In this document: positions 21,198-40,947 of the stretch, piece after piece
Numbering within the stretch: position 1 is the stretch's first letter
Layout: each line of letters opens with the position of its first letter
Source of the DNA: a virus
Length of the DNA: 64,000 bases
IMG/VR virus record: IMGVR_UViG_3300017991_000007
Span: 1 to 64,000 of that record
Reading direction: 5' to 3' (one strand)
The notes under the pieces: model-generated
Told to the model about the DNA's origin: nothing
Databases searched by the model: none
The model's input: the letters and a program-made list of their open reading frames with translations, nothing else
Translations under genes and position numbers: made by a program

Positions 21198-21623
21198 ATG
21201 TTTGATGCTACCTCTAATGACTTGATTTTTACTTTTGCGGATGGTTGGACAATACCGGCAAAGCTGAAATCGTTGGAACAGCACATGGATTCCCCGATTG
21301 AATACCGAGAGGGCGGTATATCAATAGCTATGCGTTTTCCGGGTCGCAGGGAGATTAATCTTACGGTTTATATGGAGGCTGCGGATGCTGCGGGTTGGCA
21401 AGAGCGTGTCAATTCGCTGGATAATTATAAAGCGGATGCGGTGTACGGTGATGCGGTACTGCATGGCTGTTGGCCCAAGAGTGTGCAAGTTGATATGGCT
21501 TGGGATGCGGCTGAGGTAGAGATTATCTCAGATTCGCTTATAGAGCCGCCTGAGATACCAGCGGTCAACTTGACTATTAAACCGGAGCGTCCGACAATGG
21601 CTAGAGTTCGTTTGATTGAATAA
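21198..21623 (+). CDS. Tail-tube (gp19)-like degenerate protein with C-terminal tag
   Basis: IEYREGG...FPG, GCWPKS; ends PTMARVRLIE. Confidence 0.6.
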   Translation: MFDATSNDLIFTFADGWTIPAKLKSLEQHMDSPIEYREGGISIAMRFPGRREINLTVYMEAADAAGWQERVNSLDNYKADAVYGDAVLHGCWPKSVQVDMAWDAAEVEIISDSLIEPPEIPAVNLTIKPERPTMARVRLIE

Positions 21624-21634
21624 AGGAGTACGTC

Positions 21635-22120
21635 ATGTATTGGCTGATAAAGTGCCTTTGGAAGCGAACAGCGGCAAGCAAGAGGGGTTATCCGAACCAG
21701 TGGCACAACAAAGACTTTAGAAATCGGGATACGCTTTTCCTGCGGATGCGGAAAGGCTCTTGGATGGATAAGTTCTTAGCGTGGGCAAGTATGAGTGGTA
21801 CGACTTACGGAGATTTGGTAGCCGTCCGAAATGACAGGTGGCACAAGGTCACTGCTTGCGACGGGGGCAATCCGCACTCCAAGTTTGTGATACATGAAAT
21901 GGTACATCATATGCAGTGTGAGAGGCGATTGACTTATGGAATGCAAGCGATTGCATATACCCTTGAGTGGGGTTGGAGGTGGGTTGCCGCCCTTTTCGGA
22001 AAGCAGACACACGCCCGGTACGATAACAAGTATGAGGTGGAAGCTTGGAATAAAGCCGGTCAAGATATCCGGGATTGGAAAGCCGATGGTCTTGATCCGA
22101 AACGCCCGTGGGTGATCTAA
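21635..22120 (+). CDS. Zincin-like (DUF4157-type) protein
   Basis: IHEMVHHMQ ... NKYEVEA. Confidence 0.6.
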   Translation: MYWLIKCLWKRTAASKRGYPNQWHNKDFRNRDTLFLRMRKGSWMDKFLAWASMSGTTYGDLVAVRNDRWHKVTACDGGNPHSKFVIHEMVHHMQCERRLTYGMQAIAYTLEWGWRWVAALFGKQTHARYDNKYEVEAWNKAGQDIRDWKADGLDPKRPWVI

Positions 22121-22401
22121 TGAAAGGCTTGCGGTATTTTGGTCATTTCAGGACACCGGCTGAGGCGATAAAGCATATCAAGTTTGTTGGTGAGGATTTG
22201 ATGCCGGGTGATTGGTTCTATAGTAAGCGGAATGGAGAGGCTTATATTTGGGACGGGGGAAACTGGATACTTATGCTTGGCAGTACCGGGGAGCCGCAGC
22301 CGATTTTCAGAAAAAAGGAGGGTAGATTCATGGAGGTCTATGAGGTCAATTACGATTTGCCGGGTAATACCCCAATGGCTGAGGTAAGGACTATTGAGTG
22401 A
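22120..22401 (+). CDS. C-terminal-tag family protein
   Basis: Ends TPMAEVRTIE. Confidence 0.65.
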   Translation: MKGLRYFGHFRTPAEAIKHIKFVGEDLMPGDWFYSKRNGEAYIWDGGNWILMLGSTGEPQPIFRKKEGRFMEVYEVNYDLPGNTPMAEVRTIE

Positions 22402-22633
22402 CTTCGACAAGAAAGAGGCCATGCGTGATCCGGGTATTGTGGGGATAGTTTCTCGCACCCTTGCACGGCATACCCATGTAACAGGTACGCCGGACCCGCT
22501 GAGTCCTGAGAAAGTTGCTGAGTGGGATGGTATGAGCAAAGTGAGGCAAGGGGATATAAAGCTGCCTAAAGGGGTTTACTATTGGGTGGGTGACTTCGAT
22601 TGCCCGATTGCAAAAGTAAGGACCATAGAATGA
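22394..22633 (+). CDS. C-terminal-tag family protein
   Basis: Ends CPIAKVRTIE; HTH tripeptide as in spike tips. Confidence 0.65.
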   Translation: MSDFDKKEAMRDPGIVGIVSRTLARHTHVTGTPDPLSPEKVAEWDGMSKVRQGDIKLPKGVYYWVGDFDCPIAKVRTIE

Positions 22634-22995
22634 GCAAACTACCAAAAGGTACGATAGTTACCAAGACGAAATTTGGGTACAAGCCTTATGTGGAATATCC
22701 GAGTATGGGGAATACTCATATCAATACATTGCAGGATTTGAAAGATTTTCTTGATGAGGTTGCCGCTGAGTATCTTTACAAACCAGCTACCAATGAACTG
22801 ATAAACCAAATCTACAGACGAATCAAAGCCGCCGTACCCGCTACCTTGGGGGTAAGGGTCAACCTGACAAGAGGTGGAAACGTCCGGGTTGAATTTGAGG
22901 GTGCTGAGGAAACCTTTGGTTGCTCCAATGACGATATGAAATACTTTTTCAGTGACCTTTCGTTTGACGTGGCAACCGTGCGGTGTATCCAATAA
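22630..22995 (+). CDS. C-terminal-tag family protein
   Basis: Ends FDVATVRCIQ. Confidence 0.65.
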   Translation: MSKLPKGTIVTKTKFGYKPYVEYPSMGNTHINTLQDLKDFLDEVAAEYLYKPATNELINQIYRRIKAAVPATLGVRVNLTRGGNVRVEFEGAEETFGCSNDDMKYFFSDLSFDVATVRCIQ

Positions 22996-23077
22996 AAAAA
23001 AAATGCCCGGTATGGGTACCGGGGCTTTGGAAGGGAATATGTGAATGGGTTTTTGTAGGCTTTATTCGTTTTTCAAT
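22995..23077 (-). ncRNA. Putative ~80-nt small RNA or empty promoter cassette
   Basis: Operator promoter (23084-23134) followed directly by a terminator at 23005-23024; no ORF between. Confidence 0.45.
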
Positions 23078-23083
23078 GATGCC

Positions 23084-23200
23084 ATTCTAGCAAGGCAGTA
23101 AAGCCTTGTCAAGTAAAAAATGCAATCAATTGCACTTTTTTTCAAAATAGTTTTTAACCCCTTGATTTTAGTTGACAATTCATAAAAGCAGTGTTAAGTT
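23084..23200. promoter_or_regulatory. Operator with divergent promoters
   Basis: TGTCAA 23107-12, TGCAATCAATTGCA 23121-34, TTGACA near 23172. Confidence 0.75.
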
Positions 23201-23206
23201 TCTTTT

Positions 23207-23482
23207 ATGGATGCGAAAAGATATAATCAAACGCCGTGCATAGGGTGTGGGTATTGTTGCCAAACCCCTTGCGTATTGGCTTTGCAGACTTACGGGATAG
23301 ACCGGCTCAAGAAAGAGCGTTGCCCGTCATTAAGGTGGGATGGTAAAAGATGGTTCTGCCAGCTTGCAGAAACGTCTGAGAGGGTCCGTAAAGACCTTTG
23401 GATAGGTGCGGGTTGTTGTTCTGCCTTAAATACCAATAGGAGAGAGAATAGACCTATTAAGCCGTGGGAATTTGGAAAATGA
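23207..23482 (+). CDS. Cys-cluster (CxxCxxCC) protein
   Basis: CIGCGYCC...CP.L...FC...GCC. Confidence 0.6.
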   Translation: MDAKRYNQTPCIGCGYCCQTPCVLALQTYGIDRLKKERCPSLRWDGKRWFCQLAETSERVRKDLWIGAGCCSALNTNRRENRPIKPWEFGK

Positions 23483-23844
23483 CTTTAAGCGGCCTCAGAA
23501 AGAAGGATAGGGATTTTGTCTTGGACCTCAAGGATTTCCTTGAGTACGAGTTGCAGAATTACGTTGTGAGGCGTTTTCAGCAAGGCGTGAATATCCTGAA
23601 TAAGCTCATATGCCAAAAAATGGAAAAGAAAATGGGTAAGGCGTATGCTATTCATAAATGGAGTTGGCAGATAAAAGAGCATCAAGGGTCGGACGTACCG
23701 GCTCATTCGCTTGGATTCCATTTGATTATATTTCCACCTAAGCCGTCACCCCTTACGTCATTCGTAGTTTCGATTGGAAAGCCGGGTTTTGAGTTTCCTT
23801 GGCCGGATCATATCGTTAAGGCAAAAGTGCGGTGTATCGCATGA
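23479..23844 (+). CDS. C-terminal-tag family protein
   Basis: Ends IVKAKVRCIA. Confidence 0.65.
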   Translation: MTLSGLRKKDRDFVLDLKDFLEYELQNYVVRRFQQGVNILNKLICQKMEKKMGKAYAIHKWSWQIKEHQGSDVPAHSLGFHLIIFPPKPSPLTSFVVSIGKPGFEFPWPDHIVKAKVRCIA

Positions 23845-24164
23845 AGCTACCCATAATATTTCCGAATCAGAATGAGAAAATAGTCCATGACTTTCGCAAG
23901 GCGTTGTCTGAGGATGAGTATTTCAATGCCTCTAAAACTTCTAAAGAGGCTAAAGAGTCTGCCTTTGGGTTTGCGAATAAATACTTGCCGAAAGGGTGGA
24001 CTTTTAATGTTAGAGATTTGGCCGGGTGGGGAGATACGGTCAAGATTCAGGTGAATTTGCAGCCGCCAAGAGGGAAGGAAATCTATACTGTAGAGGCGGT
24101 CTTGCTCATTGATGACGGGGTGTACCCGCCGCCTCTGGCAACGGTAAGGCTGGTTGGAAAGTGA
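23841..24164 (+). CDS. C-terminal-tag family protein
   Basis: Ends PPLATVRLVGK. Confidence 0.65.
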   Translation: MKLPIIFPNQNEKIVHDFRKALSEDEYFNASKTSKEAKESAFGFANKYLPKGWTFNVRDLAGWGDTVKIQVNLQPPRGKEIYTVEAVLLIDDGVYPPPLATVRLVGK

Positions 24165-24610
24165 TTGAACCACGCATAACCAAAGAGAAATTAGAGCATT
24201 TTCAGCGGACTATTGTGGATTTTCACCGCAGCAAGCTCATTATCTATGATCCCCAATACGAGTTTTATGATGCTACCCGTCAATTCTATGTTTGCACCGA
24301 TTATGATAGCTATCTAAGAAGGATTTACCGTGGATCAAAGCAGACAGATGCCGTTGTGTGGGCTGCTTTCGCTGAGGCTAAGATTCGGATGGTTGTCTTT
24401 ACCCCTATTCTCAAGTGCGCTTTGGACCGGCTTAGAAAAAAGACCCCTCGTAGGTCTAATGATCCGGTCTTTTTGAGTATGGTCCAGCTTGATACTCCTA
24501 CTATCCGAAAGTTTGAACATGCTTGCGCTCAAGGTAGTGTTTTGGGGCTTTGGGAAACGATGACCCGTGATCCCGCTCCGTTGCTTGCCCGTGTAAGGTT
24601 GGTAGGATGA
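24161..24610 (+). CDS. C-terminal-tag family protein
   Basis: Ends PLLARVRLVG. Confidence 0.65.
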   Translation: MIEPRITKEKLEHFQRTIVDFHRSKLIIYDPQYEFYDATRQFYVCTDYDSYLRRIYRGSKQTDAVVWAAFAEAKIRMVVFTPILKCALDRLRKKTPRRSNDPVFLSMVQLDTPTIRKFEHACAQGSVLGLWETMTRDPAPLLARVRLVG

Positions 24611-24945
24611 GTAGTATAACGGAAAGGCGATACAACCGCATAAAGAAAAAGCTATACGATGCCCTTGAGTACGATATGCCATTGCTCCATGATGAGAAAC
24701 AGGGGCAGGATGAGGTATATAGAACAATCAAAAGCGTTTTGAAATCTCCGAGTACGTGGGACGTTAAAGTGTGGGTAAACAAAACGGTCCAACCGGCATT
24801 AAAGCAACCGGGTATGTTCTATTATTGTGCAAAACTGCGGGTTTTGGGAACGCCGGATGAGGTTCATTTGAATATAGTAGCCGCTCAAGGGGGAGGTAGA
24901 GATATCAAGGAATTGCGGTTGGCAAGAGTGAGGTGTATTGCCTAA
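24607..24945 (+). CDS. C-terminal-tag family protein
   Basis: Ends LRLARVRCIA. Confidence 0.65.
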   Translation: MSSITERRYNRIKKKLYDALEYDMPLLHDEKQGQDEVYRTIKSVLKSPSTWDVKVWVNKTVQPALKQPGMFYYCAKLRVLGTPDEVHLNIVAAQGGGRDIKELRLARVRCIA

Positions 24946-25241
24946 TGGATAAAGTTGTGGTTGATGGATTCAGGCAATTATTGAAAGACGCTATGCGGGA
25001 ATGTATGAGGATCAAGGGTATCGACTCCCCCAATAAATTTGATGATACTGCTTTGGACTTTATTCAAAATGCGTTGGAAAGGCACCTATGGCCTCAGTAT
25101 GAGGTATCGGTGCGGGTTTATAGGGGAGTATTTGAGGCTAAGATAATCCATGTTGATAATAATGAGGTAGAATGGCTTTGGCCGTATTTGGATATGCTGA
25201 TTTATAGTAAGGAGTTGGCAGTGGTAAGGACAATACAATGA
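24945..25241 (+). CDS. C-terminal-tag family protein
   Basis: Ends ELAVVRTIQ. Confidence 0.65.
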   Translation: MDKVVVDGFRQLLKDAMRECMRIKGIDSPNKFDDTALDFIQNALERHLWPQYEVSVRVYRGVFEAKIIHVDNNEVEWLWPYLDMLIYSKELAVVRTIQ

Positions 25242-25486
25242 TTAAACCAATGAAAATAGTGTTTTGGTCTTTTTCCTTCGGAACCATGTTGATCATCGTT
25301 TTAGTGATTATGCTGCTACTTTTACCGGTTTCTATACCCTCAGATGCGGTAAGTGCAACCGATTGCACTGAAAACATAACTGTCAATCCGTGCCATGACT
25401 GCCCGCCGCCGGGTCTGAGGTGGCAAACACCCGAAACTCCAAGGATGCCCCAAGTAGAGCCGCCTTGGAAGGAAAGGAGAGAGTGA
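25238..25486 (+). CDS. Small membrane protein
   Basis: N-terminal hydrophobic helix. Confidence 0.5.
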   Translation: MIKPMKIVFWSFSFGTMLIIVLVIMLLLLPVSIPSDAVSATDCTENITVNPCHDCPPPGLRWQTPETPRMPQVEPPWKERRE

Positions 25487-25855
25487 ATGTACGAATACAA
25501 AGCCCGTGTGGTTAGAGTAGTTGACGGGGATACAATGGACGTATCCATTGATCTTGGTTTTGGGGTTTACAAAAGGGAGCGGATAAGGCTTGCGGGGATC
25601 AATACCCCTGAGACTTTCGGAGTCAAGAAAACAAGTGATGAATACGCCGCAGGAATGGCTGCTAAGGAGTTCGTACAATCGGTCTGCCCCGTTGATTCAA
25701 TCATCGTTATTCGCACCGATAAGGACAAACAGGGCAAGTATGGCCGGTACATTGCCTATGTGTTCTACCATGATTCAGGGGGTGACGAACCAAATCACTT
25801 GTGCCTGAATGAAACACTGCTTGCAGCCGGTCATGCGGAAAAGGTGGATTACTAA
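25487..25855 (+). CDS. Thermonuclease (SNase) family protein
   Basis: RVVDGDT, RIRLAGINTPE, GKYGRY. Confidence 0.9.
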   Translation: MYEYKARVVRVVDGDTMDVSIDLGFGVYKRERIRLAGINTPETFGVKKTSDEYAAGMAAKEFVQSVCPVDSIIVIRTDKDKQGKYGRYIAYVFYHDSGGDEPNHLCLNETLLAAGHAEKVDY

Positions 25856-26355
25856 TGAATGAAAGAGTCTTAGGGGATGTTACGGGTGACGGACCCCAAT
25901 ACATGACGTTGGTGTTTCCCTACGATTCAACGGGGATTCTCCTTGGCATGAAAAAAGAGGGATTCGGTAAAGGGCGTTGGAATGGTTTTGGAGGCAAGGT
26001 AAAGGAGGGAGAGCAATTAAAGGATGCTGCTGTACGAGAGTTGAAAGAGGAATGCGGCTTGGAAGCTTCCCCGGATGATCTTGTAGAGGCTGGAATCCTG
26101 AATTTCTATCCATATTATTGTGTGGTATTCGTGTATGGGTATAGGGTTAAGGGTGACTTGAGGCAGGAAAGACCCGTGGAAACGGAGGAAATGATACCAC
26201 GCCGGTTTGCTAATGAGGAAATACCTTTTGATCAAATGTGGGCCGATGATTCATATTGGCTCCCCTTGTTTTTGAAAGGTATCCCTTTTGTTGGAGAATT
26301 TCATTTTAACGGGGATGATTCAGTTAGAGAATGGTCCTTAGAGGGTATGCCGTGA
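25855..26355 (+). CDS. NUDIX hydrolase (8-oxo-dGTPase/MTH1-like)
   Basis: GFGGKV..GE....AAVRELKEECGL; IPFDQMWADD. Confidence 0.9.
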   Translation: MNERVLGDVTGDGPQYMTLVFPYDSTGILLGMKKEGFGKGRWNGFGGKVKEGEQLKDAAVRELKEECGLEASPDDLVEAGILNFYPYYCVVFVYGYRVKGDLRQERPVETEEMIPRRFANEEIPFDQMWADDSYWLPLFLKGIPFVGEFHFNGDDSVREWSLEGMP

Positions 26356-26376
26356 AGTAGGAAAGGTGGATTATTA

Positions 26377-26883
26377 ATGAGGCGATATTGGGCTTACTTG
26401 AAAGTGGTTTTGAGGCACAAATACTACGTTTACAAGGCGTGTCGGATAATGAAAGTGCCTTGGTGGATTGCGGTAGTCCATGATTGGCGCAAGTTCCTAC
26501 CGAGAGAGTTTATCCCATACGCTCACAACTTCTACAATGCGGACGGCTCCAAGCGTACTGTTCGGGATAAAACCGGTGCCTACGACCCTGCGGCTCAAGC
26601 AAATGCGTTTCAGCTTGCATGGCTGGATCATCAACGGGCAAGGCACCATTGGCAAGCTTGGTGCGTGATAGGTGACGGCGGTAAGCTGAGTCCAATGACG
26701 ATGCCGGAAATCTTTGTGAGGGAGTTGGTTGCCGATTGGATGGGAGCGGGGGCTGCTTACGACAATTACAGTCCGCAGGGTTGGTACAAAGCAAATAAAG
26801 ATTCTTTGGTTGTTACCCCGTCAACTACGATGCTCATTGAGCGATTGTTGCAGGATGAGGTACCGGTAGAGAATCCTTTTTAG
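26377..26883 (+). CDS. DUF5662-like HD-type protein
   Basis: HK..V, HDW.KF.P.EF, AW..H.....HHWQ.W, ADW. Confidence 0.7.
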   Translation: MRRYWAYLKVVLRHKYYVYKACRIMKVPWWIAVVHDWRKFLPREFIPYAHNFYNADGSKRTVRDKTGAYDPAAQANAFQLAWLDHQRARHHWQAWCVIGDGGKLSPMTMPEIFVRELVADWMGAGAAYDNYSPQGWYKANKDSLVVTPSTTMLIERLLQDEVPVENPF

Positions 26884-26892
26884 GGGGTAGAA

Positions 26893-27147
26893 ATGGCTAA
26901 GTATCGAAAGAAACCCGTTGTCATTGAGGCGTGGGAGTTTGGCTCCGGTACGCCTAAGCCTGAATGGTTGCAAAAGGCTTTTGATGAGGGAGTGATAGCG
27001 CATGATGGTCCTTTGCTCAAGGTCAAGACGCTTGAGGGAGAAATGAGTGCCTTTCCGGGCAGCTTTATCATTCAGGGAATCAAGGGAGAAATCTACCCTT
27101 GTGAGGCTGAGATATTTGAGGCTACTTATGAGCATGTTGACGATTAA
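26893..27147 (+). CDS. Conserved phage protein (YRKKPVVIEA family)
   Basis: KYRKKPVVIEA...TLEG...G.FII.G.KGE.YPC...IF..TYE. Confidence 0.75.
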   Translation: MAKYRKKPVVIEAWEFGSGTPKPEWLQKAFDEGVIAHDGPLLKVKTLEGEMSAFPGSFIIQGIKGEIYPCEAEIFEATYEHVDD

Positions 27148-27343
27148 AGCCGTGGATATCTATTACGGGGAGCATAGTCCAAGGTGGCAATATGACTGCT
27201 TTAGGTGCAAGTTTGGTTGGTCATGTGGTATGACGTGTGAGTGTGTGTTGCGAACATTCCTGATAGGAAAGATGCCGCCCGCTGAGAGGCAACAGCAAGT
27301 GAATGAGGCACTAATCTCAGCGGGCTTGGAGCCTGAGTTTTAG
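27128..27343 (+). CDS. Hypothetical Cys-containing protein
   Basis: CFRC...C...CEC. Confidence 0.45.
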   Translation: MSMLTIKAVDIYYGEHSPRWQYDCFRCKFGWSCGMTCECVLRTFLIGKMPPAERQQQVNEALISAGLEPEF

Positions 27344-27561
27344 GGTTTTCCCTGAGAATGTTTGTTGGTCTGCCTTTTGTTCGGCACGGTACCGATATCA
27401 GCATAGGTCCGGCGGTAGCGCACTCTTGCTTTTTCCAAGGCTCCTACCAGATTCACGCCTTGAACGCCCCGGACACCCTCATAGCCCTTTTTGCCTTGTT
27501 CCCGTACTTGCCGGTCCCTGAATCGTACCTTAGCGCATGGGTTTTTCTTTGGTCCTGCCAT
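27340..27561 (-). CDS. Small basic protein
   Basis: AGGAG RBS; K/R-rich; last gene of the MAKG operon. Confidence 0.65.
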   Translation of the reverse strand: MAGPKKNPCAKVRFRDRQVREQGKKGYEGVRGVQGVNLVGALEKARVRYRRTYADIGTVPNKRQTNKHSQGKP

Positions 27562-27572
27562 TGTATCTCTCC

Positions 27573-27908
27573 TTATTCCGGTACCGGTGTGGGGAATCCC
27601 CCCGGCGGTAAAGTGTTTAGCTTACTTTCAAGCCTTATATTCGAGTCACGCAATTGCTGTAATATCGCAGTTTGCGCTTTCTGGTTCTCTTGAACATCAT
27701 CCATTTCAATGCGGTAGATATCCTCATCAACCTTTGTATCGCCAAGCTCTTTCACGTCCGTTTGTAGGTTTTCAATCGCATGGTCCCTATCTGAGTTGAC
27801 GAAATCGGAGATAAAGATGATTGCGGTGCCAATGGCTACGATACCAACGGCAACAGCCACTATCTTGCTCCAAAGCGGGAAAGGTGTTTTCTCTCCATTT
27901 TTTGTCAT
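27573..27908 (-). CDS. Membrane-anchored coiled-coil protein
   Basis: Single TM helix then coiled coil. Confidence 0.65.
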   Translation of the reverse strand: MTKNGEKTPFPLWSKIVAVAVGIVAIGTAIIFISDFVNSDRDHAIENLQTDVKELGDTKVDEDIYRIEMDDVQENQKAQTAILQQLRDSNIRLESKLNTLPPGGFPTPVPE

Positions 27909-27920
27909 GGCTCAAGTCCT

Positions 27921-29239: not shown

Positions 29240-29249
29240 ACTTTATCTC

Positions 29250-29765: not shown

Positions 29766-29778
29766 TGGTTACTCCTTT

Positions 29779-30423: not shown

Positions 30424-30453
30424 GACACGCTCCTAGAGGGAGAAAGGTAACTG

Positions 30454-30771: not shown

Positions 30772-30785
30772 AGTGGGGTAAGCTC

Positions 30786-31309: not shown

Positions 31310-32200
31310 AAGTATAAAGTGGGCAGGGCATACCCCCTATGTCACACGGCGCATAATATAAATAGAGTAGTGTGACGTGCAAACGATTGCACTCACATAG
31401 CCTATGAATCAAGGCCGGGTGGGGGTGGATCAAAGGCGGGGGGAAACCTATATTCAAGGGGTCGGGTCGCCAAGCAGTAGAGGGGTGGGGTAGTAGTACA
31501 ACACAACACACAAAGCACCTACTGTCCGTCCTCACACAACACAACATCGGGGGTACCCTATACGGTGTCCACACGTTGTCCACATTCAGCGCATCAAACC
31601 CTTGTCTAACCTTCAAATATGGACGGTAGGGGGGTACCATCATTTTTGGGTCAAAAATAAAAGTCCCTTTTCAGAAAGTAACCCTAAGCCTCATGCCGTA
31701 CAACTATAACGCACAGGACATTTTAAGTAATTAAAACAAGCACTTGCACACCCCCTCCCCCCAAAAATATAAGATACTATGAGATAAGGACACCCATTAT
31801 GGACACTATGGACATATAACCCCTGAAAAGCGGGTGGTAGGCTTGGATTTGGCTTAATTTGCCTAAAATATAAGCAGAAACGGGGGAGCTAAGGTGGTTT
31901 GTGACTATCGGTTGCACCTAAAATCTTGGGGTATGGACACTTTAATTTTCGGGGGTGTCCATATTTTTCGTTGGGGCTGACTTAGTTCCCGCCTTGTGTA
32001 TCGGAGCGGACAGTTTGCCTTTGTTTTCGCATACTTGGGGCTAAATACTTTCCACATATGGAGTTAGTCAGGGCTTTGGTGCAAAAAATATATTTCGTGG
32101 TCCACCAAATATATGTATCGTAAGTACCTGAAACAGTTAGGCTTTTTCGTTTCGAGCGTGTAAAGGGTCATCAAAAGGCTTTTTCGTGGTCCTCTTTTGC
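31310..32200. other. Long non-coding region between divergent blocks; candidate replication origin or genome terminus
   Basis: No credible ORF; repeated GGACAC/TGGACA in both orientations, CA-rich tracts, homopolymer runs. Confidence 0.45.
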
Positions 32201-32754
32201 CTTATACTCTATCTATGAACAAACCAGCATTTCAGCCGTCCCTACAACTCGCACAGGCAAGGGGCATGATCCAAGACACTCAGGGGCGGTTGTTTACCCG
32301 GATTGTCTGCCATAGCTCCAAAGCATGTAGCGGCTGTTGCCGGGAGAGTGCAAACGTGGTCCTCACCCCCGACGAACTCCCCGTCATCATGGACCTTGCC
32401 AGAATCCGAAATATTCCCACCCCGCTTGTAGAAACCAATGACGAACAGGGCTTGATTGTTATGGCCCCGCAGCATGGCCGGTGCGTTTTCTTTTCACCGA
32501 GCAAGAATACCTGTGTGATTCATAAGGACAAGCCCTTATTCTGCCAACTTTATCCGATATGGCTCACACCCAAAGGGCCAATCATCGACGTGTCCTGTCC
32601 CATAGGTGATTTCTTTCGCAATCTTCTAAGGTCAAGAGACAAGGAAATGCTCACACTACTCCAAGCCGCCCAAGACCTACTGACACTCTACCCCACGCTT
32701 GCGAGCGTCCAAACTAATGCAATCGCTTGCACTGATTCTGTTAATTCAGATTAA
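32197..32754 (+). CDS. YkgJ-family Zn/Fe-chelating Cys-cluster protein
   Basis: CSGCC...CVFF...CVIHKDKPLFCQLYP. Confidence 0.75.
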   Translation: MPYTLSMNKPAFQPSLQLAQARGMIQDTQGRLFTRIVCHSSKACSGCCRESANVVLTPDELPVIMDLARIRNIPTPLVETNDEQGLIVMAPQHGRCVFFSPSKNTCVIHKDKPLFCQLYPIWLTPKGPIIDVSCPIGDFFRNLLRSRDKEMLTLLQAAQDLLTLYPTLASVQTNAIACTDSVNSD

Positions 32755-32808
32755 TCTTGACAAGCCCTTATAGTATTGTTATATTGTGCATTGAAAGGGG
32801 GTAGCTAA

Positions 32809-33204
32809 ATGAAATTTGTATTCCATGATTCTTGTTATTACTGCGGGGATGAGGTAGAGGCTGAGTTTCACCAATATGAAGTAACCCGAATGCAAGTTGG
32901 TACGGCTCTTATGTCAAAGGGGTGGGAACAATGTATTAATGCGTCCGGGTGGGACGTATGGAAATGCCCAAAGTGCCAAAAAGCGGAAAGTGAGGCAACG
33001 GTGAAATTACTTGTAGAGTGGCAACCATATGATGAGGCACCTCAGAAAAGTCAAATTAAGGTCAAGGATAAAAACAATACCGCTGAGGTAAAGAAAGCTT
33101 TGTATGCGGATTACATGGAGTCCGGCGGGTTGTCTGAGGATGATATGGATGGATTTACCCCGGATACTTTCGTAACCATTCTGGAAATGTGGGAATTAAA
33201 GTGA
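32809..33204 (+). CDS. Zn-ribbon hypothetical protein
   Basis: CYYC...CPKC; promoter at 32757 and GGGGGTAGC RBS. Confidence 0.6.
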   Translation: MKFVFHDSCYYCGDEVEAEFHQYEVTRMQVGTALMSKGWEQCINASGWDVWKCPKCQKAESEATVKLLVEWQPYDEAPQKSQIKVKDKNNTAEVKKALYADYMESGGLSEDDMDGFTPDTFVTILEMWELK

Positions 33205-33461
33205 CGGTCAAAATCCACAACCATGAATCTTGCCCCAAGTGCGGGTATGATTTTCAGAAATTGGCAGACCCCGTGTACGTCAAAGATATGTGTCCTTTCT
33301 GCGGTTGGCCGAATAAACCGAAAGCGATAGGGGAATTTGGTAAGACGGTTTTCATGGACGGGGGTAGAGCTTTTCCTGCGGATATCCTTGAGGGTATGGC
33401 TGAGAAATACGATAAGATGGTCAATAATCCACCAATGGCTAAAGCTAAAACGATTTGTTGA
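33201..33461 (+). CDS. C-terminal-tag family protein (Zn ribbon plus scaffold/protease-like fragment)
   Basis: CPKC/CPFC; DGGRAFP..ILEGMAEKYD; ends PPMAKAKTIC. Confidence 0.6.
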   Translation: MTVKIHNHESCPKCGYDFQKLADPVYVKDMCPFCGWPNKPKAIGEFGKTVFMDGGRAFPADILEGMAEKYDKMVNNPPMAKAKTIC

Positions 33462-33471
33462 GAGGTCTTGA

Positions 33472-33765
33472 GTGTACCTGAAATTCACCGGCAAAGATAA
33501 AGGCTCTTGGAAAATTGGATCATCGGTTTTCTGCTACAAGAACGGTGACGCTTTTCCTATGGGTAAGGTCATTGCTATCCATGAAAAAGAGGTATCAGTG
33601 GGTATCCGCTTTGTGTTTACCGCTGAGATAGAGCTTGCCTATTGGGGGGAAGCTTTGAAAATGGCAGATGGTTGTGAAAAGCTTTTTGAAAACGCCGGTC
33701 AAAAAATTTGGGTGGATATTGATCCTGAATGCCCGGAAATCGCTGAGGTACGGAGCATATGCTGA
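33472..33765 (+). CDS. C-terminal-tag family protein
   Basis: Ends PEIAEVRSIC. Confidence 0.65.
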   Translation: MYLKFTGKDKGSWKIGSSVFCYKNGDAFPMGKVIAIHEKEVSVGIRFVFTAEIELAYWGEALKMADGCEKLFENAGQKIWVDIDPECPEIAEVRSIC

Positions 33766-34157
33766 CTCACAAACAGCTTATGAAAGTTGCCGGTATTCGG
33801 ACTAGGACTGAGGCGGTAGAGAAATTGGCTGAGGGTAAGATAGGGGTTGATATGGGTATCAAAAAGAGAATTCCTTGGCTGAAAATCGACACCAAGAAAT
33901 ACAAAATCCGGGCTTGGAGTGATCCTAAAACCGGAATCCCTACGAGATATAGATTCACGGTAATTGACAAGGAATTGGTTAAGGTCGTACCGGCCTCAAA
34001 GGTTTTTCTGAATAGTGTTTGTGTGCTTGATGCAATGAGCAATAGACCCGTAACCGGGGCAGATATGGAGTGGAATGCCTACTCCCCCAATAGCCCGGAC
34101 TTGGATGTAGAGATAGATTTTAGACCGCTGCTTGCTCAAGTCCGATTAATTTCTTGA
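33759..34157 (+). CDS. C-terminal-tag family protein
   Basis: Ends PLLAQVRLIS. Confidence 0.65.
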   Translation: MLTHKQLMKVAGIRTRTEAVEKLAEGKIGVDMGIKKRIPWLKIDTKKYKIRAWSDPKTGIPTRYRFTVIDKELVKVVPASKVFLNSVCVLDAMSNRPVTGADMEWNAYSPNSPDLDVEIDFRPLLAQVRLIS

Positions 34158-34188
34158 CACTCCCTAAAAGTGTTGTTATATTATAGAT

Positions 34189-34375
34189 AGTTGCCCGTGG
34201 TAGCCGATGACCGGAGAGAGGCGGGGCAAGGACCGGGGAAACTCGCTACTGCATTGATAAGACGCTTACCGATGATAGCGGTGGACGCGCTGCTTAGTGG
34301 TAAGAAATGCCCTATGTCACGGGGTAAGGTCGCAACCGGTATTATGCGACCTTCGTTTAAGCCCCCACGGGTACC
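34189..34375 (+). ncRNA. Putative ~185-nt structured RNA
   Basis: TTGACA-17-TATATT promoter; 5' GCCCGTGG pairs with 3' CCACGGGT; internal AAGGTCGCA/TGCGACCTT stem. Confidence 0.5.
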
Positions 34376-34396
34376 TTAAATTTTCATAATGGAGGT

Positions 34397-34795
34397 TTGA
34401 AAATGGATGAGCTTAAAAAGGTGCGGGATAGGCTTGCTGAAATGCTCTATGCGTTGGATGAGTTGGTTACAAACCGAGCCGGGGTTAATTCTACAATAGA
34501 TAGGAAAAATATTTCCGTTGCCGGTGTTCCAATTTTTGAAAATGCGCTTAAAGAGCCGGGGGTGGGAGCCGTTTTTATGCTTACGGATAATGAAAGCCGT
34601 TTCACTCTTTCGGAAACCGGGGAAATGCAACTGTTTTCCGATAAAAAGAGCTATGCGACAAGATGGAATAGGTTTGAAATGGCTCATTATATCAGGGTTG
34701 GAATCAAGTCTTGCTTAGAGCGTATGTGCGAAGTTGCCGGATATCCGGTCAAAGAATTCACTTTTGCTAAATTTGTGGGGAATGTAGAGGATTGA
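34397..34795 (+). CDS. Hypothetical protein
   Basis: GGAGG RBS. Confidence 0.6.
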   Translation: MKMDELKKVRDRLAEMLYALDELVTNRAGVNSTIDRKNISVAGVPIFENALKEPGVGAVFMLTDNESRFTLSETGEMQLFSDKKSYATRWNRFEMAHYIRVGIKSCLERMCEVAGYPVKEFTFAKFVGNVED

Positions 34796-34826
34796 TTTTG
34801 CGATTTAGCTGAGTTTTTAGGAGAGA

Positions 34827-35021
34827 ATGATGACGGTATGTGAAAAGAGCGATTGTCCTTATAATCTCCAAGGGGCTTGCCAAGCCGATTGGAAAGTTAT
34901 GGAAATCACCTCTGAGGGTGTTTTTTATTGTGCCACTGCAATGCAGCTTGACCGTAACGCAAACGTCAAAAGGTCACATAGCTTTGACACCCCAATTCTT
35001 GCTGAGATAGGAAAGAAATAA
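34827..35021 (+). CDS. Small Cys protein
   Basis: C....C.YN....C motif. Confidence 0.5.
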   Translation: MMTVCEKSDCPYNLQGACQADWKVMEITSEGVFYCATAMQLDRNANVKRSHSFDTPILAEIGKK

Positions 35022-35251
35022 TGAACTTTGATCCTTTGGCACTTTGGAAAGACGGTAACGGAGTCAGTACCTTAACACTGAAAAGCGGTTTGTCGGTTAT
35101 CGTTGAGCGTAAGCGTTCTCAGTGGTGGGTGTATTTGCGGAAAGGTCCGATGAAAAACGGTAGGATTTTGCTGCGGAAAGAACGTACTAAAACGGAAGCC
35201 AAAGACAAAACCTACGAATGGTTGCAAGAGGTGGGTTTGGTCTTTGGCTAG
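35021..35251 (+). CDS. Hypothetical protein
   Basis: Coupled ORF. Confidence 0.55.
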   Translation: MNFDPLALWKDGNGVSTLTLKSGLSVIVERKRSQWWVYLRKGPMKNGRILLRKERTKTEAKDKTYEWLQEVGLVFG

Positions 35252-35289
35252 GGAAGGGTAAAATTTAAGAAGATACTCAGGGGGTAGTT

Positions 35290-35718
35290 ATGGCTGAATT
35301 GAGTAAAAAAGTAAAAGCGGCGGTAGAGGAATATCAATGTTCTGGTTGCGTTGGCGGGTCGGATACGTCCTGCTATGAAGCGGCTCAATTTCATGCCGGG
35401 TGTGAGAGACACGTTGCGGGTACCATCTTTGCGCCTCATATTGGCAGCATTCTTTTAGGAATGCCTAAAGGCTTTAACCGGCTTGGACTTTTGGGAGCGA
35501 AACAACCTATCTGTATTTTCAAGACTTTTGCGGATTCATCCTACACTTTCGATAAGTACAACGTACCGGTTTGGAAAATGGTGCTTAACGGGCATACGTT
35601 TGTGCGGGGCATATCCCCCCGGATCAACATGCCTTTCATTCTGGTTTTTCTTGAGGATTGTGCGGATAAGATAGATTGCTTGGAAATTACTGAGAAAGAC
35701 CTTGAGGAAATGGATTAA
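35290..35718 (+). CDS. Conserved phage hypothetical protein
   Basis: YQCSGCV.G...LGMPKGFNRLG. Confidence 0.65.
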   Translation: MAELSKKVKAAVEEYQCSGCVGGSDTSCYEAAQFHAGCERHVAGTIFAPHIGSILLGMPKGFNRLGLLGAKQPICIFKTFADSSYTFDKYNVPVWKMVLNGHTFVRGISPRINMPFILVFLEDCADKIDCLEITEKDLEEMD

Positions 35719-35731
35719 GGGGTAGAGTTAT

Positions 35732-35805
35732 GCGCTTATAGCTCAATGGTAGAGCAAGGGACTCTAAATCCCCGTGCATAGGTTCAAATCCTATTAAGCG
35801 CACCA
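35732..35805 (+). tRNA. tRNA with CUA anticodon (amber suppressor)
   Basis: GCGCTTA/TAAGCGC acceptor stem, GCTC/GAGC D stem, anticodon loop CTCTAAA, ATAGG-TTCAAAT-CCTAT T arm, encoded CCA. Confidence 0.9.
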
Positions 35806-35823
35806 AATAGAGAGGATTACTAG

Positions 35824-36285
35824 ATGAGTAAACCGACTTGTAATATCTGCGGGCAGTTCCTAGAGACAGTTGCCCAAAAATTTGCTGGATTCTGTGATAA
35901 ATGCTGCGATGATCTACTTGATTTGCGGGAAAAGGCCAAGAACTACAAGACCACCCCGCAGGATCAGGACCAACAGCTAAAGGCGGCTGAGAATTTCATG
36001 GAGAAAACCGACAAAATCCCTATTGCCAGCATGGACCCGCTGGTAGCTGAGGCCCGCCTTGCGATTCGCAACTTTCTGGAATTCTACAATGCGGCTGTTA
36101 CCTACCCGGATGTTGTCGAGGTGCTTGAGGATGTGATAAATCAGGCTTGCACCGTGGGGGATGAGCTTGATTCGAGTGCGCTATCTGCCTATGCGGGCGG
36201 GATGCGTCTGTTGGCGAAACTCGGACGGCTGGAAATTACAAAGGAGTACGGGCGGCGGGTTATCGGAAAGTGGGTGGCAGAATGA
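35824..36285 (+). CDS. Hypothetical protein with N-terminal Zn finger
   Basis: CNIC...CDKC; GAGG RBS. Confidence 0.6.
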   Translation: MSKPTCNICGQFLETVAQKFAGFCDKCCDDLLDLREKAKNYKTTPQDQDQQLKAAENFMEKTDKIPIASMDPLVAEARLAIRNFLEFYNAAVTYPDVVEVLEDVINQACTVGDELDSSALSAYAGGMRLLAKLGRLEITKEYGRRVIGKWVAE

Positions 36286-36581
36286 GTAGAGGCAAACATG
36301 ATCCGAAACAAGATTTTCCTAAATCTGCTACTCCCTTGCCAAAACCTAAAGATGAGCAAGTGGATTGGGATGCCTTGGTTGATGAGGTTGCTGCCAAGAT
36401 GAGGGAGTTTGTTAATGCCGGTCTGCTAAAGCCTACCCCTATGATTGACTGCGGGGAGTATTGGATTATCCCCCACGAAAACGGGGAGTGGGTTGACTCT
36501 GAGGGTCGGTTATTGATTCGTTGGAAAAAGCCGGTAGAGTATATCACCATGACGGTTATGATAGGTGGGGATGGTGAATAG
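36282..36581 (+). CDS. Tail-sheath C-terminal-domain-like fragment
   Basis: W..LVDEV...MREFV.AG.L ... KPVEYITMTV. Confidence 0.45.
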   Translation: MSRGKHDPKQDFPKSATPLPKPKDEQVDWDALVDEVAAKMREFVNAGLLKPTPMIDCGEYWIIPHENGEWVDSEGRLLIRWKKPVEYITMTVMIGGDGE

Positions 36582-36737
36582 TCTCATAGCTGTATTGATC
36601 ATAATTGCCGGGTGGGTTTTAGGTGTTTGGGCATTCGTCATTATCCCCTTGCAGATTTACGCCGGGGTAGATTGGAAAACCAACCCCTTTAAGGCGATTG
36701 AAAAGCAGTGGGATGAGGATAGAAAGCGATACAAGGA

Positions 36738-37196
36738 TTAGAAAAGTTCGTCACCTCTCCAATGGAAAATACCGTCAAGCAGATTATTGGAATTGAAGTC
36801 ACCCTCTGGTTGTACCTCAAGTTCATGCTCTTGGATTGGAGCGTCAAGGGATTCTCTGGTTAAGATAATGACCTTCATATCCTTGTGGGTAAAGGGTTTG
36901 TCATAGGGGTAATCCTTTGGCTCATTGGGGTACGCTTTATCATCATATTGCTCTCTAATGCGCCGGAAAAGCCTCAATATGTATTCCTCAGCGGTATCGA
37001 CTATAACCACGTCACCGCCCCGGAAATGGACCTCTAAGGCCAATTCTGCAAGCGCAAGGCGTTGCTCCGGGTAGGTCTGACTGAGGCTCCAAAAAGGCAT
37101 AAAGTTAGGCGGTTGTCCACCTAACTTGCCGGTAACGTATTCTTTGGCGTGATCCTTTTCTATCCAGTAGGTATTTGGAATATAGAACGTGATCAA
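36738..37196 (-). CDS. DUF3696/ABC-ATPase C-terminal-like fragment
   Basis: YPEQ..ALAEL...G.DVVIVDTAEEYILRLFRRIRE...G.F.....DGIF. Confidence 0.5.
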   Translation of the reverse strand: MITFYIPNTYWIEKDHAKEYVTGKLGGQPPNFMPFWSLSQTYPEQRLALAELALEVHFRGGDVVIVDTAEEYILRLFRRIREQYDDKAYPNEPKDYPYDKPFTHKDMKVIILTRESLDAPIQEHELEVQPEGDFNSNNLLDGIFHWRGDELF

Positions 37197-37344
37197 TCGG
37201 TATCCTCTCGTTTTTCTTTACCAAAGCAGTAAGGATCATCCTCAGCGCAATAGCAAACGCTCTTATTGCAGCAAGAGGTGTATCCATCATCGACTACCGG
37301 ATTTTCACGTCCGCAATTGCTACAATGCGGGGTGCCAAAATCTT

Positions 37345-37593
37345 TCATATGCCCACCTCAGCCATTAAAGCGGCGTTTGCAGCCTCATCAAAATCAGGGG
37401 GTACTTGTACCCGATAGGTCGCAAAATCCTCTACCGTTGCCGGACGTAAATTGGAAAAAGCTACATGCTGCGGACCCGGATGCAAAGCGAAAGGTGCGCC
37501 CCTCAAGACGCTTGCCCGCAGTACACCCATATTGACTGCATCAATCATATAGCCAAGAGTATGCTCATTTCGGACAACATAGCAGTTTAACAT
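37345..37593 (-). CDS. Hypothetical protein
   Basis: LRPATVEDF..YRV motif. Confidence 0.6.
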   Translation of the reverse strand: MLNCYVVRNEHTLGYMIDAVNMGVLRASVLRGAPFALHPGPQHVAFSNLRPATVEDFATYRVQVPPDFDEAANAALMAEVGI

Positions 37594-37862
37594 TCGTCTG
37601 CCTCTCCATTAATGATTTGCAGAAAACCGGTCAACCCGGCCTCAAAGTCACCTATCAATTCAGCTTCCCCGCAACCGTTATAATCCGGGTCAACCTCAAG
37701 AAAGCAGACGTGCGGATTTTCGTGATCCGGGTCATAAACATGGTGCATTTCGCCAAGCACTAAGCCGTTGCTGGAATCAATTACAAAGTAGGTAGCAACC
37801 GAGCCGTTGCCGTCTGCGGATGCCTCAGTAAGCTCCGTATGAATGTCATTGCGATTCAACAT
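37587..37862 (-). CDS. Hypothetical acidic protein
   Basis: Coupled ORF. Confidence 0.6.
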   Translation of the reverse strand: MLNRNDIHTELTEASADGNGSVATYFVIDSSNGLVLGEMHHVYDPDHENPHVCFLEVDPDYNGCGEAELIGDFEAGLTGFLQIINGEADEC

Positions 37863-38077
37863 TATACCACCTCATCAAAAACGTCATTGGCTATGTAGAA
37901 AACAATATCCGCTGCGGCTGCGTTGGCTATGCAGTCCAGACCCAAGGCGTTTGCGCCCGCAAGAGTGTTTTCCAAGTCGGTAGTTTCCGCAGTGAGTTCC
38001 TGCGGGGTCATGGAGTCGTAAAGGTCCAAGGCCAATTCGTCTGCTATTTCCAAGTTGTGTAAGGTTAAGTCAGTCAT
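37862..38077 (-). CDS. Hypothetical acidic protein
   Basis: Behind operator promoter and conserved leader. Confidence 0.6.
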   Translation of the reverse strand: MTDLTLHNLEIADELALDLYDSMTPQELTAETTDLENTLAGANALGLDCIANAAAADIVFYIANDVFDEVV

Positions 38078-38129
38078 TGCATTTCCCCTTTCGGTGTTGG
38101 CTTGTTGTGTCGTTTGATTCATCATGCGT

Positions 38130-38190
38130 AAAGTATAACAAGTCCCTAGAGCGTTGTCAACAAAAAAGTGCAATTAATTGCACTTTTTTA
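38130..38190 (-). promoter_or_regulatory. Operator plus sigma70 promoter
   Basis: TGTCAA 38155-60, TGCAATTAATTGCA 38169-82. Confidence 0.8.
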
Positions 38191-38215
38191 TAAGATGTTG
38201 AAAATAAAGAGCATT

Positions 38216-38473
38216 TTATCCATTCATTAAGAGTAAAGAGCCTAAGCCTCTATTCATAGCCTCTTGCCAAATTACGTGAAACTGAATTTCCAAGGTATGT
38301 ACTACCCGGTCAACCGTCCTACCGCCGTGGGGGTGATCCTCACAAAGCAGATTGATATTCCGGCGCAAGTCACCGCTGAAACGTACCAAGCTGAAATCAT
38401 CCATAGACATAGCGGTTATTCGGGTTGAAACGGCCAAATCCCTATCAAAATTTTCCTGATTAAAATTCGGCAT
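38216..38473 (-). CDS. Hypothetical protein
   Basis: AAGGAG RBS; operator promoter upstream. Confidence 0.6.
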   Translation of the reverse strand: MPNFNQENFDRDLAVSTRITAMSMDDFSLVRFSGDLRRNINLLCEDHPHGGRTVDRVVHTLEIQFHVIWQEAMNRGLGSLLLMNG

Positions 38474-38519
38474 TTCGTTTCTCCTTTCTTGGCTTATGTC
38501 ATTATTGGTTTCCATGCCC

Positions 38520-38625
38520 TAACTCTATCAAGGCTTAAAAGCCGTGTCAAGTAAAAAATGCAAGCGATTGCACTTTTTTATTTTTCAGAAATTACTTGAC
38601 AAGTCTTTTCAGGTGTGTTAGTATT
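38520..38625. promoter_or_regulatory. Operator with divergent promoters
   Basis: TGTCAA 38545-50, TGCAAGCGATTGCA 38559-72, TTGACA 38596-601. Confidence 0.75.
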
Positions 38626-38654
38626 CCTTTATAATTTACGCACGGGGGTAGCGA

Positions 38655-39194
38655 ATGGCAAAGAAAAAGCCGGTCAAATGGGAGCCTTTCAAAGAGGCAT
38701 ATTACCCGGATGATTTTCCGCTTGATGACGATAAGGTTTACAAGAATAATCAGTATCAGGTAGCAGCCAAGCTTTATCCCTCTCAAGGGGGTTTTCCTCA
38801 GTATGTGGGGCTTTCCATTAAGAAGCTGAATAAACACCCCGTACATGATTGGCGGGATTTGCAGCGTATAAAAAATGAGTTGTGCGGGATCAATTGTCAA
38901 GCTATTGAGATTTACCCGCCTGAGTCTGAGTTGGTGGATACTGCCAACCAATATCATCTTTGGGTATTCCCGCCGGGTATCTGCTTACCTATCGGATTTA
39001 GTGAGCGGCGTGTTTCGTGTGATCCTGAATTCCAAGAGCAATTAGAGCAAGATTGTGCTGGTATCGGGATTGATCCAAAGCAGTTGAATAAATCCAAGCA
39101 AAGAGAATTCAAAGAGCATCATAAATGCCGGACCTTGCCGGAAATCGGTAGGGTATGGCAGGATGTTGGCTATGAGGGGGTAGAGGATGATTGA
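38655..39194 (+). CDS. Conserved phage protein
   Basis: LSIK...HDWRDLQRIKNEL.G....AIEIYP.ES.LVD.ANQYHLW. Confidence 0.75.
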   Translation: MAKKKPVKWEPFKEAYYPDDFPLDDDKVYKNNQYQVAAKLYPSQGGFPQYVGLSIKKLNKHPVHDWRDLQRIKNELCGINCQAIEIYPPESELVDTANQYHLWVFPPGICLPIGFSERRVSCDPEFQEQLEQDCAGIGIDPKQLNKSKQREFKEHHKCRTLPEIGRVWQDVGYEGVEDD

Positions 39195-40947
39195 TATCAC
39201 TAAGCCCGTTACCACGGCAAAAGGGCAGCGTGTTATCGGATTGCAGCGGGTACCATGCAACTCTGAGGGTAGAAAAGTAACCTACCCTTTGAAGGGTAGC
39301 GTTGTGGTTTGTGAAAAGCCTTTCAGGACTGAGTACAATGTTTGGACTGATAGCGGCGTGTGGGATGTAGTCTGGAATAGGCACCCGGAACTTAACTTGA
39401 TTCAAGGGGGTTGAAAATGGCCTTAGTGAGTAGAGAGGAAAAGGACGGCGTTCATATTGACGTGGTTTGTGATCATTGCGGTGCGGTCAATGATGCGGAT
39501 GTAACGCATGATATTGCCGGAAATTATTGCAGCAAACCGGAGTGTCAAAAAGTTTGGTGGAAAAACCGAAAAAAAGGTAAGGCATTTATGGGTAAGCTTT
39601 TGAAAACCACTATGAATTTCATTGAGGGAATGGATGATCTTGCTAAAGAATTTGAGGAAAGTAAGAAATGACGGCGTTTACTTTTGTGGGAGTGTTGGCG
39701 GTTGGTTTCATCCTTGGGGTGATTTTAGGGCTTTCAATGGGGAGTCAAAAAAGAAAGCTACTTGAGGAATTGCAGGAAACTTATGAGGAAACGGTTGCCA
39801 AGCAAAAAGAGGCAATCAAGCATCAAGATTCTGCTATCGAAACTCAGAAAGAAGCTATTGAAAAGCTTATGCTGAGGCTCAAGGTAGATTATCCTTTTGT
39901 GTGAGGTAATAAATGAAATTCCGGCTTGAACCTATGGACCTTTTTCCTCTGAATAATATCAGCGGGAAAATCCCTATGGACCTTTTAATTAAAGTTCATT
40001 GGGGTGGTATGTCCAAGTCAAGCTTTTCGCTTGAGTCTTTTATCAGGCAGTACACGCCGGATAAGGTTATCTCATTTTCGGATGCAACGGGTGTGGGGGA
40101 ACCTCTTGTAATGAGGCATTCACAGCTTATGGAAAAGCTTGAGATTGAGGGTATCTTAAAAAAGTGGGAGCGCATTCAGGATGAGCGGGAAAACCGAAAG
40201 CGATAAAATTTTTGAGCAATGGCGCACTAAGGTCTATGACCCCAATGAGGGTGGGTTTGTAACCATTAAGCATAGGGATAGGAAGTTCATAGGTACCCTT
40301 TCTTGCGGACCCGGCGGGGTGGGTATCTTTGAGCCTTATGAGCCGTTGCACGTCAATTTTAAGTATGAAATCAATGTGTCTGAGTTGGACCCTGCGGTAG
40401 TTAAGTCGATAAAAGAATTCAGGGCGGGGTGGGGTGCAAAGAAAGTTGAAATAGCTTTAGATGATGATGAGGATTAATGGAGGCTCCTAAGCACATAAAA
40501 AGTATGAGGGAACTTGTAGATATTTTTGGGGATTTTTATCCGCAAACTACTTTGGAATTGCGTCACTCTGAAATGTTTTCCCCGGTTGGCAGACTCAAAA
40601 TGGGTAGTTGGTCTATTCCGGCTTATGATCCGGTTTCCAAGTACAATAGGACTGAGTACGTTGTGGTATTTACGGACTTTGGCGTTCAATACCGTGGGGA
40701 GCTTGACGTTGAAACTGGAATCATAACTATAGATAGTCATATCACGGGTGACGTGAAAAAGATTGTAACAATGGAGGTCGTAACCTGCGGGTATGCGCCC
40801 GGTGTGGACCCTGATAGACTCGAATACTTTGAGGAAAGGCGGTTGGCGAATTTACCCATTGGGGTACCGTCGCAGTCTTTCAATACACAACACAATGCTT
40901 GGTTTAGGATTCATAGTTTTAGAGAATTGAGGGATAGACCCCCTTAA
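39187..40947 (+). CDS. Run of six small hypothetical ORFs (39187-39414, 39411-39671, 39668-39904, 39913-40206, 40181-40477, 40477-40947)
   Basis: Overlapping or adjacent start/stop codons on the same strand. Confidence 0.55.

Follow-up and report, generated by a model that had tools for sequence, protein, structure and literature searches.

A tagged, probably tube-derived gene among the early accessory genes of an uncultured myophage

Tail tubes of the gp19/contractile injection system (CIS) type (Pfam family PF06841) are known structurally from All3324 (7b5h), AlgoCIS (7adz), Afp1 (6rao) and Pvc1 (6j0b). The subject of this report is an open reading frame (ORF) of an uncultured myophage, ORF 21198-21623 (ORF 21198 hereafter), for which these proteins and the phage's own tube are the closest known counterparts. 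The ORF lies in a window, i.e. the whole stretch of DNA that was analysed, that comprises the first 64,000 bases of an IMG/VR virus record of 106,648 bp (IMGVR_UViG_3300017991_000007), which is complete and has terminal repeats. The source material consists of sediment and seawater metagenomes, and several studies have sediment or seawater runs with contigs identical to the phage over the compared stretch. A first-pass annotation, made by eye, had read the accessory part of the window as a scatter of degenerate virion-protein fragments, most of them sharing a C-terminal tag, that might serve as decoys. The stretch from 21 to 41 kb is in fact an early accessory region of lineage-specific orphan genes and not a collection of virion-protein fragments. 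The reading that we favor, and consider reasonably probable, is that ORF 21198 stands out among these orphans as a tagged, diverged copy of the tube that acts early as a mimic of tube subunits.

How does ORF 21198 compare with the gp19/CIS tubes? The likenesses lie in the order of the structural elements, as judged by alignment, in an EYREG..PG hairpin tip, in a helix Trp, in a WP..DA..V motif that is found ahead of the last strands, and in a similarly small size. ORF 21198 differs from them in a core that lacks about 30 residues, several strands being trimmed, in a score below the Pfam threshold, in a 25-residue C-terminal extension with the tag, and in its setting in an early accessory operon, not beside a sheath gene; orthologs are missing even from the nearest relative of the phage. 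Second tube paralogs are familiar from contractile systems, for example Afp5 and Pvc5, the T4 tube initiators gp48 and gp54, and gp3. Like ORF 21198, these proteins represent a diverged additional copy of the tube fold in one genome; unlike it, they are encoded in the tail/baseplate module, are conserved across relatives, and are parts of the virion.

Bacterial immunity senses virion proteins, tail tubes included, and we know of no phage-encoded structural-protein mimic that counters such sensing. According to published accounts, DSR2 is triggered by the tail tube of phage SPR and blocked by DSAD1, such that bacterial immunity senses tube proteins and small phage proteins occupy the sensor (PMC10981675, PMC11087589, PMC11263360). 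By analogy, this system would supply the logic for reading ORF 21198 as a mimic.

The tag has counterparts too, since short C-terminal targeting or turnover peptides include encapsulin cargo-loading peptides, ssrA-type degrons and clamp-binding tails. It is like these peptides in its length of 7-9 residues, in its position at the extreme C-terminus, and in being common to proteins with unrelated bodies. To our knowledge, its motif, h-A-x-V-R-x-I/V, is unlike those of encapsulin cargo, ssrA-type degrons and clamp-binding tails.

Likeness of ORF 21198 to the tail tube

Six-frame Pfam scans find a single sheath in the genome (a 923-residue ORF, 67018-69789; PF04984, E 2.7e-13; PF17482, E 2.6e-9) and a single gp19-family tube (69801-70277; PF06841, E 9e-37). 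Both lie outside the 64-kb window, and portal, head and fibre genes start at 52 kb. The true tube belongs to the CIS branch, and among solved structures it is best matched by All3324, the AlgoCIS tube, Afp1 and Pvc1. ORF 21198 is indeed far from this structural operon, as the first-pass annotation had it, at a distance of 48 kb, and the likeness to a gp19-family tube that the annotation saw in it is above chance. We searched 586 ORFs of the genome (at least 50 residues each, HMMER filters off), and ORF 21198 was the top non-self match to every tube profile: E 0.14 for a profile of 29 close tubes, E 0.01 for a jackhmmer profile, and E 0.0026 (12.7 bits) for a diverse profile of 49 sequences. 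A score that climbs with the diversity of the profile is the pattern expected of true remote homology. The tube-profile score was matched by none of 5000 shuffles, the best of which reached 8.2 bits, and when the first motif was deleted, the C-terminal rest of the ORF still found a collinear WP..DA..V site (p ~0.008, 3000 shuffles).

Direct comparison with the phage's own tube points the same way. BLASTP gave E 0.004 (one comparison), and in a MAFFT alignment the two proteins are collinear from end to end, with 12 of the 23 columns that are conserved at 80% or above retained and with the conserved tube motifs in the correct order (the EYREG..PG hairpin tip, the helix Trp, and WP..DA..V.iE). 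EYREG is confined to two ORFs of the genome, ORF 21198 and the true tube, and its codons are identical over 14 nucleotides (21300-21313 against 69927-69940 in the tube gene), the adjoining DNA being wholly diverged. Given the amino acids, we estimate such identity to be a ~3% event, which may be taken as a weak hint of common descent. The first-pass annotation had called the ORF a degenerate fragment, a description that does not fit an intact ORF that aligns with the tube over its full length: judged by this alignment, it is a whole compact domain followed by a 25-residue Pro-rich extension that ends in MARVRLIE.

Structural predictions allow the motifs to be placed on a fold. The true tube, folded with its alignment by AlphaFold2, gave a predicted local distance difference test (pLDDT) score of 77, and on this model the first motif forms the tip of the beta3-beta4 hairpin (strands at residues 38-44 and 54-61, joined by the loop). 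By alignment, ORF 21198 appears to keep every secondary-structure element in order, with several strands shortened. Its ESM Atlas model, a low-confidence one (pLDDT 0.56), has tube-fold families in 7 of 10 structural-neighbour rows, at template modelling (TM) scores of 0.52-0.59; these neighbours are Dit, Sipho_tail, Dit_like/Gp38, a PF06841 cluster (TM 0.59) and Phage_tail_2, and the structural alignments cover residues 5-120.

The C-terminal tag and its early operons

The C-terminal tag that the first-pass annotation noticed is real. The motif followed by one or two residues ends 12 ORFs (at 21623, 22401, 22633, 22995, 23844, 24164, 24610, 24945, 25241, 33461, 33765 and 34157), whereas shuffled ORFs average 0.15 such endings, with a maximum of three. 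Pro is frequently found two or three residues ahead of it. Because the tag codons vary synonymously (AGG, CGG, CGT and CGA for Arg; GTA, GTG, GTT and GTC for Val; Ala codons likewise vary), and because the motif is kept in ORFs that have no coupled downstream gene (those ending at 22995 and 34157), the tag is selected as a peptide. In six cases, the GTAAGG within it may also serve as a ribosome site. Once stripped of the tag, the tagged proteins are mutually unrelated, with no detectable paralogy, and the tag is absent from the ends of the virion ORFs. A literature search on shared C-terminal tags of phage early proteins found nothing relevant. Beyond the window, at genome positions 104954-105406, a 150-residue ORF ends in ..KIAKVKTI, near the MAKAKTIC ending of ORF 33201; it may be a 13th member of the set, or a coincidence in a helical tail.

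All of the tagged genes lie in operons headed by sigma-70-type early promoters. The promoter family, TTGACAAG followed by TGTTAtAnT (an extended -10 box), has 24 copies in the genome, and these are restricted to 669-49183 and to genome positions 90362-103289, with none in the 41-kb virion block at 49.2-90.4 kb. Read from the sequence, this distribution is a clean partition into early and late genes. Copies at 20320, 23172 and 32757 head tagged-gene operons, which would therefore be early-type host-polymerase units apart from the tail genes; the whole of 21-41 kb is apparently read by the host sigma-70 RNA polymerase. At 23172-23209 the -10 box ends ~6 nucleotides upstream of the ATG of ORF 23207, and the mRNA may therefore be leaderless. 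On the minus strand, a strong promoter (TTGACA-17-TAGAAT with TG) at 23112-23084 is followed after only ~55 nucleotides by a terminator (stem 23023-23006 plus a T-run), and the predicted RNA of ~75 nucleotides would end just beyond the stop codon of ORF 22630-22995.

Comparison with other phages marks ORF 21198 as dispensable and lineage-specific. The nearest relative is represented by two records, G001 and G002, which by mapping appear together to span its genome. Its tube is 64% identical and its virion and replication sets are complete, and of the genes at 20-41 kb it retains no more than two, one encoding the NUDIX protein and the other being the HExxH ORF 21635. No homolog of ORF 21198 was found in G001, G002 or G003, despite tail genes that are 30-65% identical, and there are no tagged ORFs in G001 or G002. 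Variation is visible within the population as well. In two metagenome runs (X2 and X3) there is a contig in which two letters separate 32733 from 34150, and which thereby bypasses a promoter-led cassette of four genes (32809, 33201, 33472 and 33759) that other contigs of the same runs carry. The promoters that flank this segment are near-identical. The cassette, which makes up the second tag cluster, is therefore optional in the population and looks like a moron-like unit. No variants were seen at 21-25 kb in four metagenome DNA runs, which gave identical low-depth contigs. The spacer between the two halves of the first tag cluster (23086-23142) shows many loose ends, and a joint that goes back 56 nucleotides, in all four metagenome runs; it is a repeat or mosaic junction with differing neighbours in related genomes.

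Ten other ORFs and neighbouring genes

The ORFs that the first-pass annotation flagged as virion-like, ORF 21198 among them, number eleven and exist at or near the positions given, so what became of the ten others? Their virion likeness found no profile support. We assembled 27 virion profiles with jackhmmer from the virion-module ORFs of the phage, drawing on 30 related viral contigs for their tail regions and on two relatives in full. When these profiles were run unfiltered against all 586 ORFs, the ten scored no more than 2.3 bits, with best E-values of 3.7-33. Pfam and PHROGs at E<=1 returned no virion family for any flagged ORF, BLASTP of the eleven against every ORF of the genome gave noise only, and six-frame Pfam scans with the sheath and tube models found the true genes only.

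The individual resemblances fare no better when taken by family. Five ORFs (22630, 23479, 23841, 33759 and 36282) had been likened to C-terminal pieces of the sheath and a sixth, 40477, to its N-terminus; a 71-row sheath profile gave E 3.7 (0.9 bits) for 40477 and E 89-130 for 36282, 23841, 33759 and 23479, and did not list 22630. A homolog search with ORF 40477 found itself or repetitive long proteins only, and the ESM Atlas model of the tagged ORF 33759 is poor, with heterogeneous neighbours, none of which belong to virion families. For 33201 and 33472, seen as scaffold/protease segments of the P2 GpO type, there is no scaffold or prohead-protease match in Pfam, PHROGs or head-module profiles; 33201 instead has weak zinc-ribbon matches. 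The claim that 22394 is a spike tip (gpV/gp5 type) leaned on an HTH tripeptide, which is trivial in a genome that has 20 HxH and five HTH among its plus-strand ORFs, and the ORF has no match in Pfam, PHROGs or the virion profiles. Nor does 22120, supposedly a fibre module, match anything in Pfam or PHROGs, and the fibre profiles (60619 and 82229) match each other only. A tape-measure profile matched the minus-strand ORF 37862-38173 (E 0.005); this match was set aside as helical and low-information.

The region in which these ORFs lie consists of short, closely packed plus-strand ORFs and one minus-strand block. Identifiable genes encode an SNase, a NUDIX protein, a DUF5662 protein, a CxxCxxCC protein and a DUF7694 protein, and the remainder are orphans. 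Directly after ORF 21198 and within the tagged run is an untagged HExxH protein that is possibly a zinc protease. Cys-rich genes of the CxxCxxCC type (23207-23482 and 32197-32754) precede both of the later tagged runs. ORF 32197 is a PF03692 protein (E 1.4e-8); the CIGCGYCC of ORF 23207 was recognized by eye only and has no Pfam match, and the two proteins are mutually dissimilar by BLASTP. The flagellin lysine methylase FliB is presumably also of the PF03692 family. Because the tag has a conserved Arg/Lys, a tag-modifying role for the Cys-rich gene product is a lead that may be worth following. The coordinates of the main features are collected in Table 1.

Table 1. Positions in the window of ORF 21198, its motifs, the early-type promoters, and neighbouring or previously flagged ORFs (HMM, hidden Markov model)
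Position	Strand	Feature	Basis
20320..20348	+	Early-type promoter, TTGACAAG-N-TGTTAAATT; heads the operon containing ORF 21198	Promoter-family search
21198..21623	+	Intact 141-residue ORF; probable compact, highly diverged gp19/CIS-type tube paralog (core ~residues 1-128) with Pro-rich linker and tag	Tube profile, shuffles, MAFFT, Atlas neighbours
21282..21359	+	Hairpin-tip motif IEYREGG..FPG, residues 29-54	HMM positions 35-61, 9.6 bits; tube beta3-loop-beta4 hairpin
21456..21527	+	Second, collinear tube motif CWP..DA..EV, residues 87-110	HMM positions 111-133
21597..21623	+	C-terminal tag MARVRLIE and stop	Sequence
21635..22120	+	HExxH protein, 161 residues, untagged, within tagged run	Sequence; weak PHROG 'protease' match, E 0.034; 29% identity in G002
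22120..22401	+	Tagged orphan, flagged 'fibre module'; no virion similarity	Best virion-profile E 22
22394..22633	+	Tagged orphan, flagged 'spike tip'; no virion similarity	Best E 15
22630..22995	+	Tagged orphan, flagged 'sheath C-terminal piece'; no virion similarity	Best E 7.1; not in sheath-profile list
23172..23200	+	Early-type promoter; heads the 23207-27147 operon (second half, tag cluster 1)	Promoter-family search
23479..23844	+	Tagged orphan, flagged 'sheath C-terminal piece'; no virion similarity	Sheath profile E 130
23841..24164	+	Tagged orphan, flagged 'sheath C-terminal piece'; no virion similarity	Sheath profile E 95
24161..25241	+	Three more tagged orphans, 24161-24610, 24607-24945 and 24945-25241	Translationally coupled; ATGA/GTGA/TAATG overlaps
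32757..32785	+	Early-type promoter; heads the tag-cluster-2 cassette, 32809-34157	Promoter-family search
33201..33461	+	Tagged zinc-ribbon protein, flagged 'GpO segment'	Zn_Ribbon_1 E 6.7e-4, weak, below cut-off
33472..33765	+	Tagged orphan, flagged 'GpO segment'; no virion similarity	Pfam, PHROGs, virion profiles
33759..34157	+	Tagged orphan, flagged 'sheath C-terminal piece'; no virion similarity	Pfam, PHROGs, profiles, Atlas
36282..36581	+	Untagged orphan, flagged 'sheath C-terminal piece'; no virion similarity	Sheath profile E 89
40477..40947	+	Untagged orphan, flagged 'sheath N-terminus'; no virion similarity, without homologs	Sheath profile E 3.7

Alternative readings and outlook

We hypothesize that the product of ORF 21198 is made early as a soluble look-alike of the tube subunit, which would occupy something that recognizes tube subunits, for example a sensor of the host or, in a rival phage or tailocin, the subunits of its tube or sheath. 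As a short peptide for docking or turnover, the tag would provide a dozen early proteins with one common partner, and the ten other flagged ORFs would be ordinary orphan early genes. A literature search on tube decoys found nothing relevant.

Is the tube likeness real in the first place? It could be a coincidence, or convergence on a short motif, in a region that has no virion-derived sequence at all, and a number of observations weigh in that direction. The bulk of the HMMER score of ORF 21198 comes from one 27-residue motif, and the E-value varies with the profile used, from 0.14 through 0.01 to 0.0026. Pfam has no PF06841 row for the ORF at E<=1, and the six-frame scan is also silent; hhalign of the single sequence against the tube gives a 9% probability over 23 columns; and phmmer against PDB sequences finds no tube chain. 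Homolog searches returned the ORF itself or repetitive long proteins only, with zero matches in 1.84 billion representative proteins. The MAFFT column test is weak, in that shuffles retain 3-11 columns and 3 of 150 reach 11, against 12 for the real ORF. The AlphaFold2 single-sequence model is unusable (pLDDT 37), the Atlas model reaches a pLDDT of only 0.56 and the language model behind it may have taken its cue from the motif, and a 14-nucleotide exact match to the tube gene within a 107-kb genome is, by our estimate, not rare on its own. Against a chance likeness stand the genome-wide E-value for the diverse profile and the failure of all 5000 shuffles to reach its score, the independent, collinear second motif, and the increase in score with more diverse profiles. 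Additionally, the Atlas alignments extend over most of the ORF and recover tube-fold families in most rows, and the control, ORF 33759, recovers none. We hold ORF 21198 to be very likely tube-derived, and regard a chance likeness as an unlikely explanation.

If ORF 21198 does derive from a tube, its product could instead be a minor part or an assembly factor of the phage's own tail, such as a tube initiator, a cap or a chaperone. Contractile systems often have at least two tube paralogs, with Afp1/Afp5 and Pvc1/Pvc5 among the PDB matches, and the hairpin motif has been kept. A stoichiometric tail role is nevertheless unlikely because the gene is 48 kb from the tail operon, lies in an early-type operon, and is absent in the closest relative, which has all of the tail genes. 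The virion block, for its part, is without promoters of the early type, and the tag is common only to non-structural orphans and ends no virion ORF; we therefore think an own-tail function improbable. At the other extreme is the full decoy model, in which many of the accessory ORFs would descend from virion proteins (tube, sheath, spike, fibre and scaffold), act as baits or poisons, and form a system by way of the tag. One tagged tube-like gene is present, and twelve tagged genes do cluster in early operons; on the other hand, no profile test bears out 10 of the 11 claimed likenesses, the tagged proteins have mutually unrelated bodies, and the one other tagged ORF viewed at the level of fold (33759) brought up no virion neighbours. 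The premise of dispersed virion fragments survives for ORF 21198 and, at sequence level, fails for the others by the refutation criterion that the first-pass annotation itself had set, since their profile searches bring up no structural proteins; we give the full model very little credence. A further idea, for which our expectations are low, is a tag-addressed set of early effectors that includes a stripped-down tube mimic blunting a host tube sensor or poisoning the tails of a rival phage or tailocin; here the tag would direct the mimic and eleven other early effectors to one and the same partner, be it hub, protease or modifying enzyme. We return, then, to a single early mimic of the tube subunit, among orphans of which eleven share its tag, as the reading that we favor.

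These results have two implications. By-eye virion likenesses in small orphan genes are mostly noise, as was the case for 10 of the 11 considered here. What is left, a tagged, dispensable tube copy in an early operon, represents a concrete and cheap test case for structural-protein mimicry.

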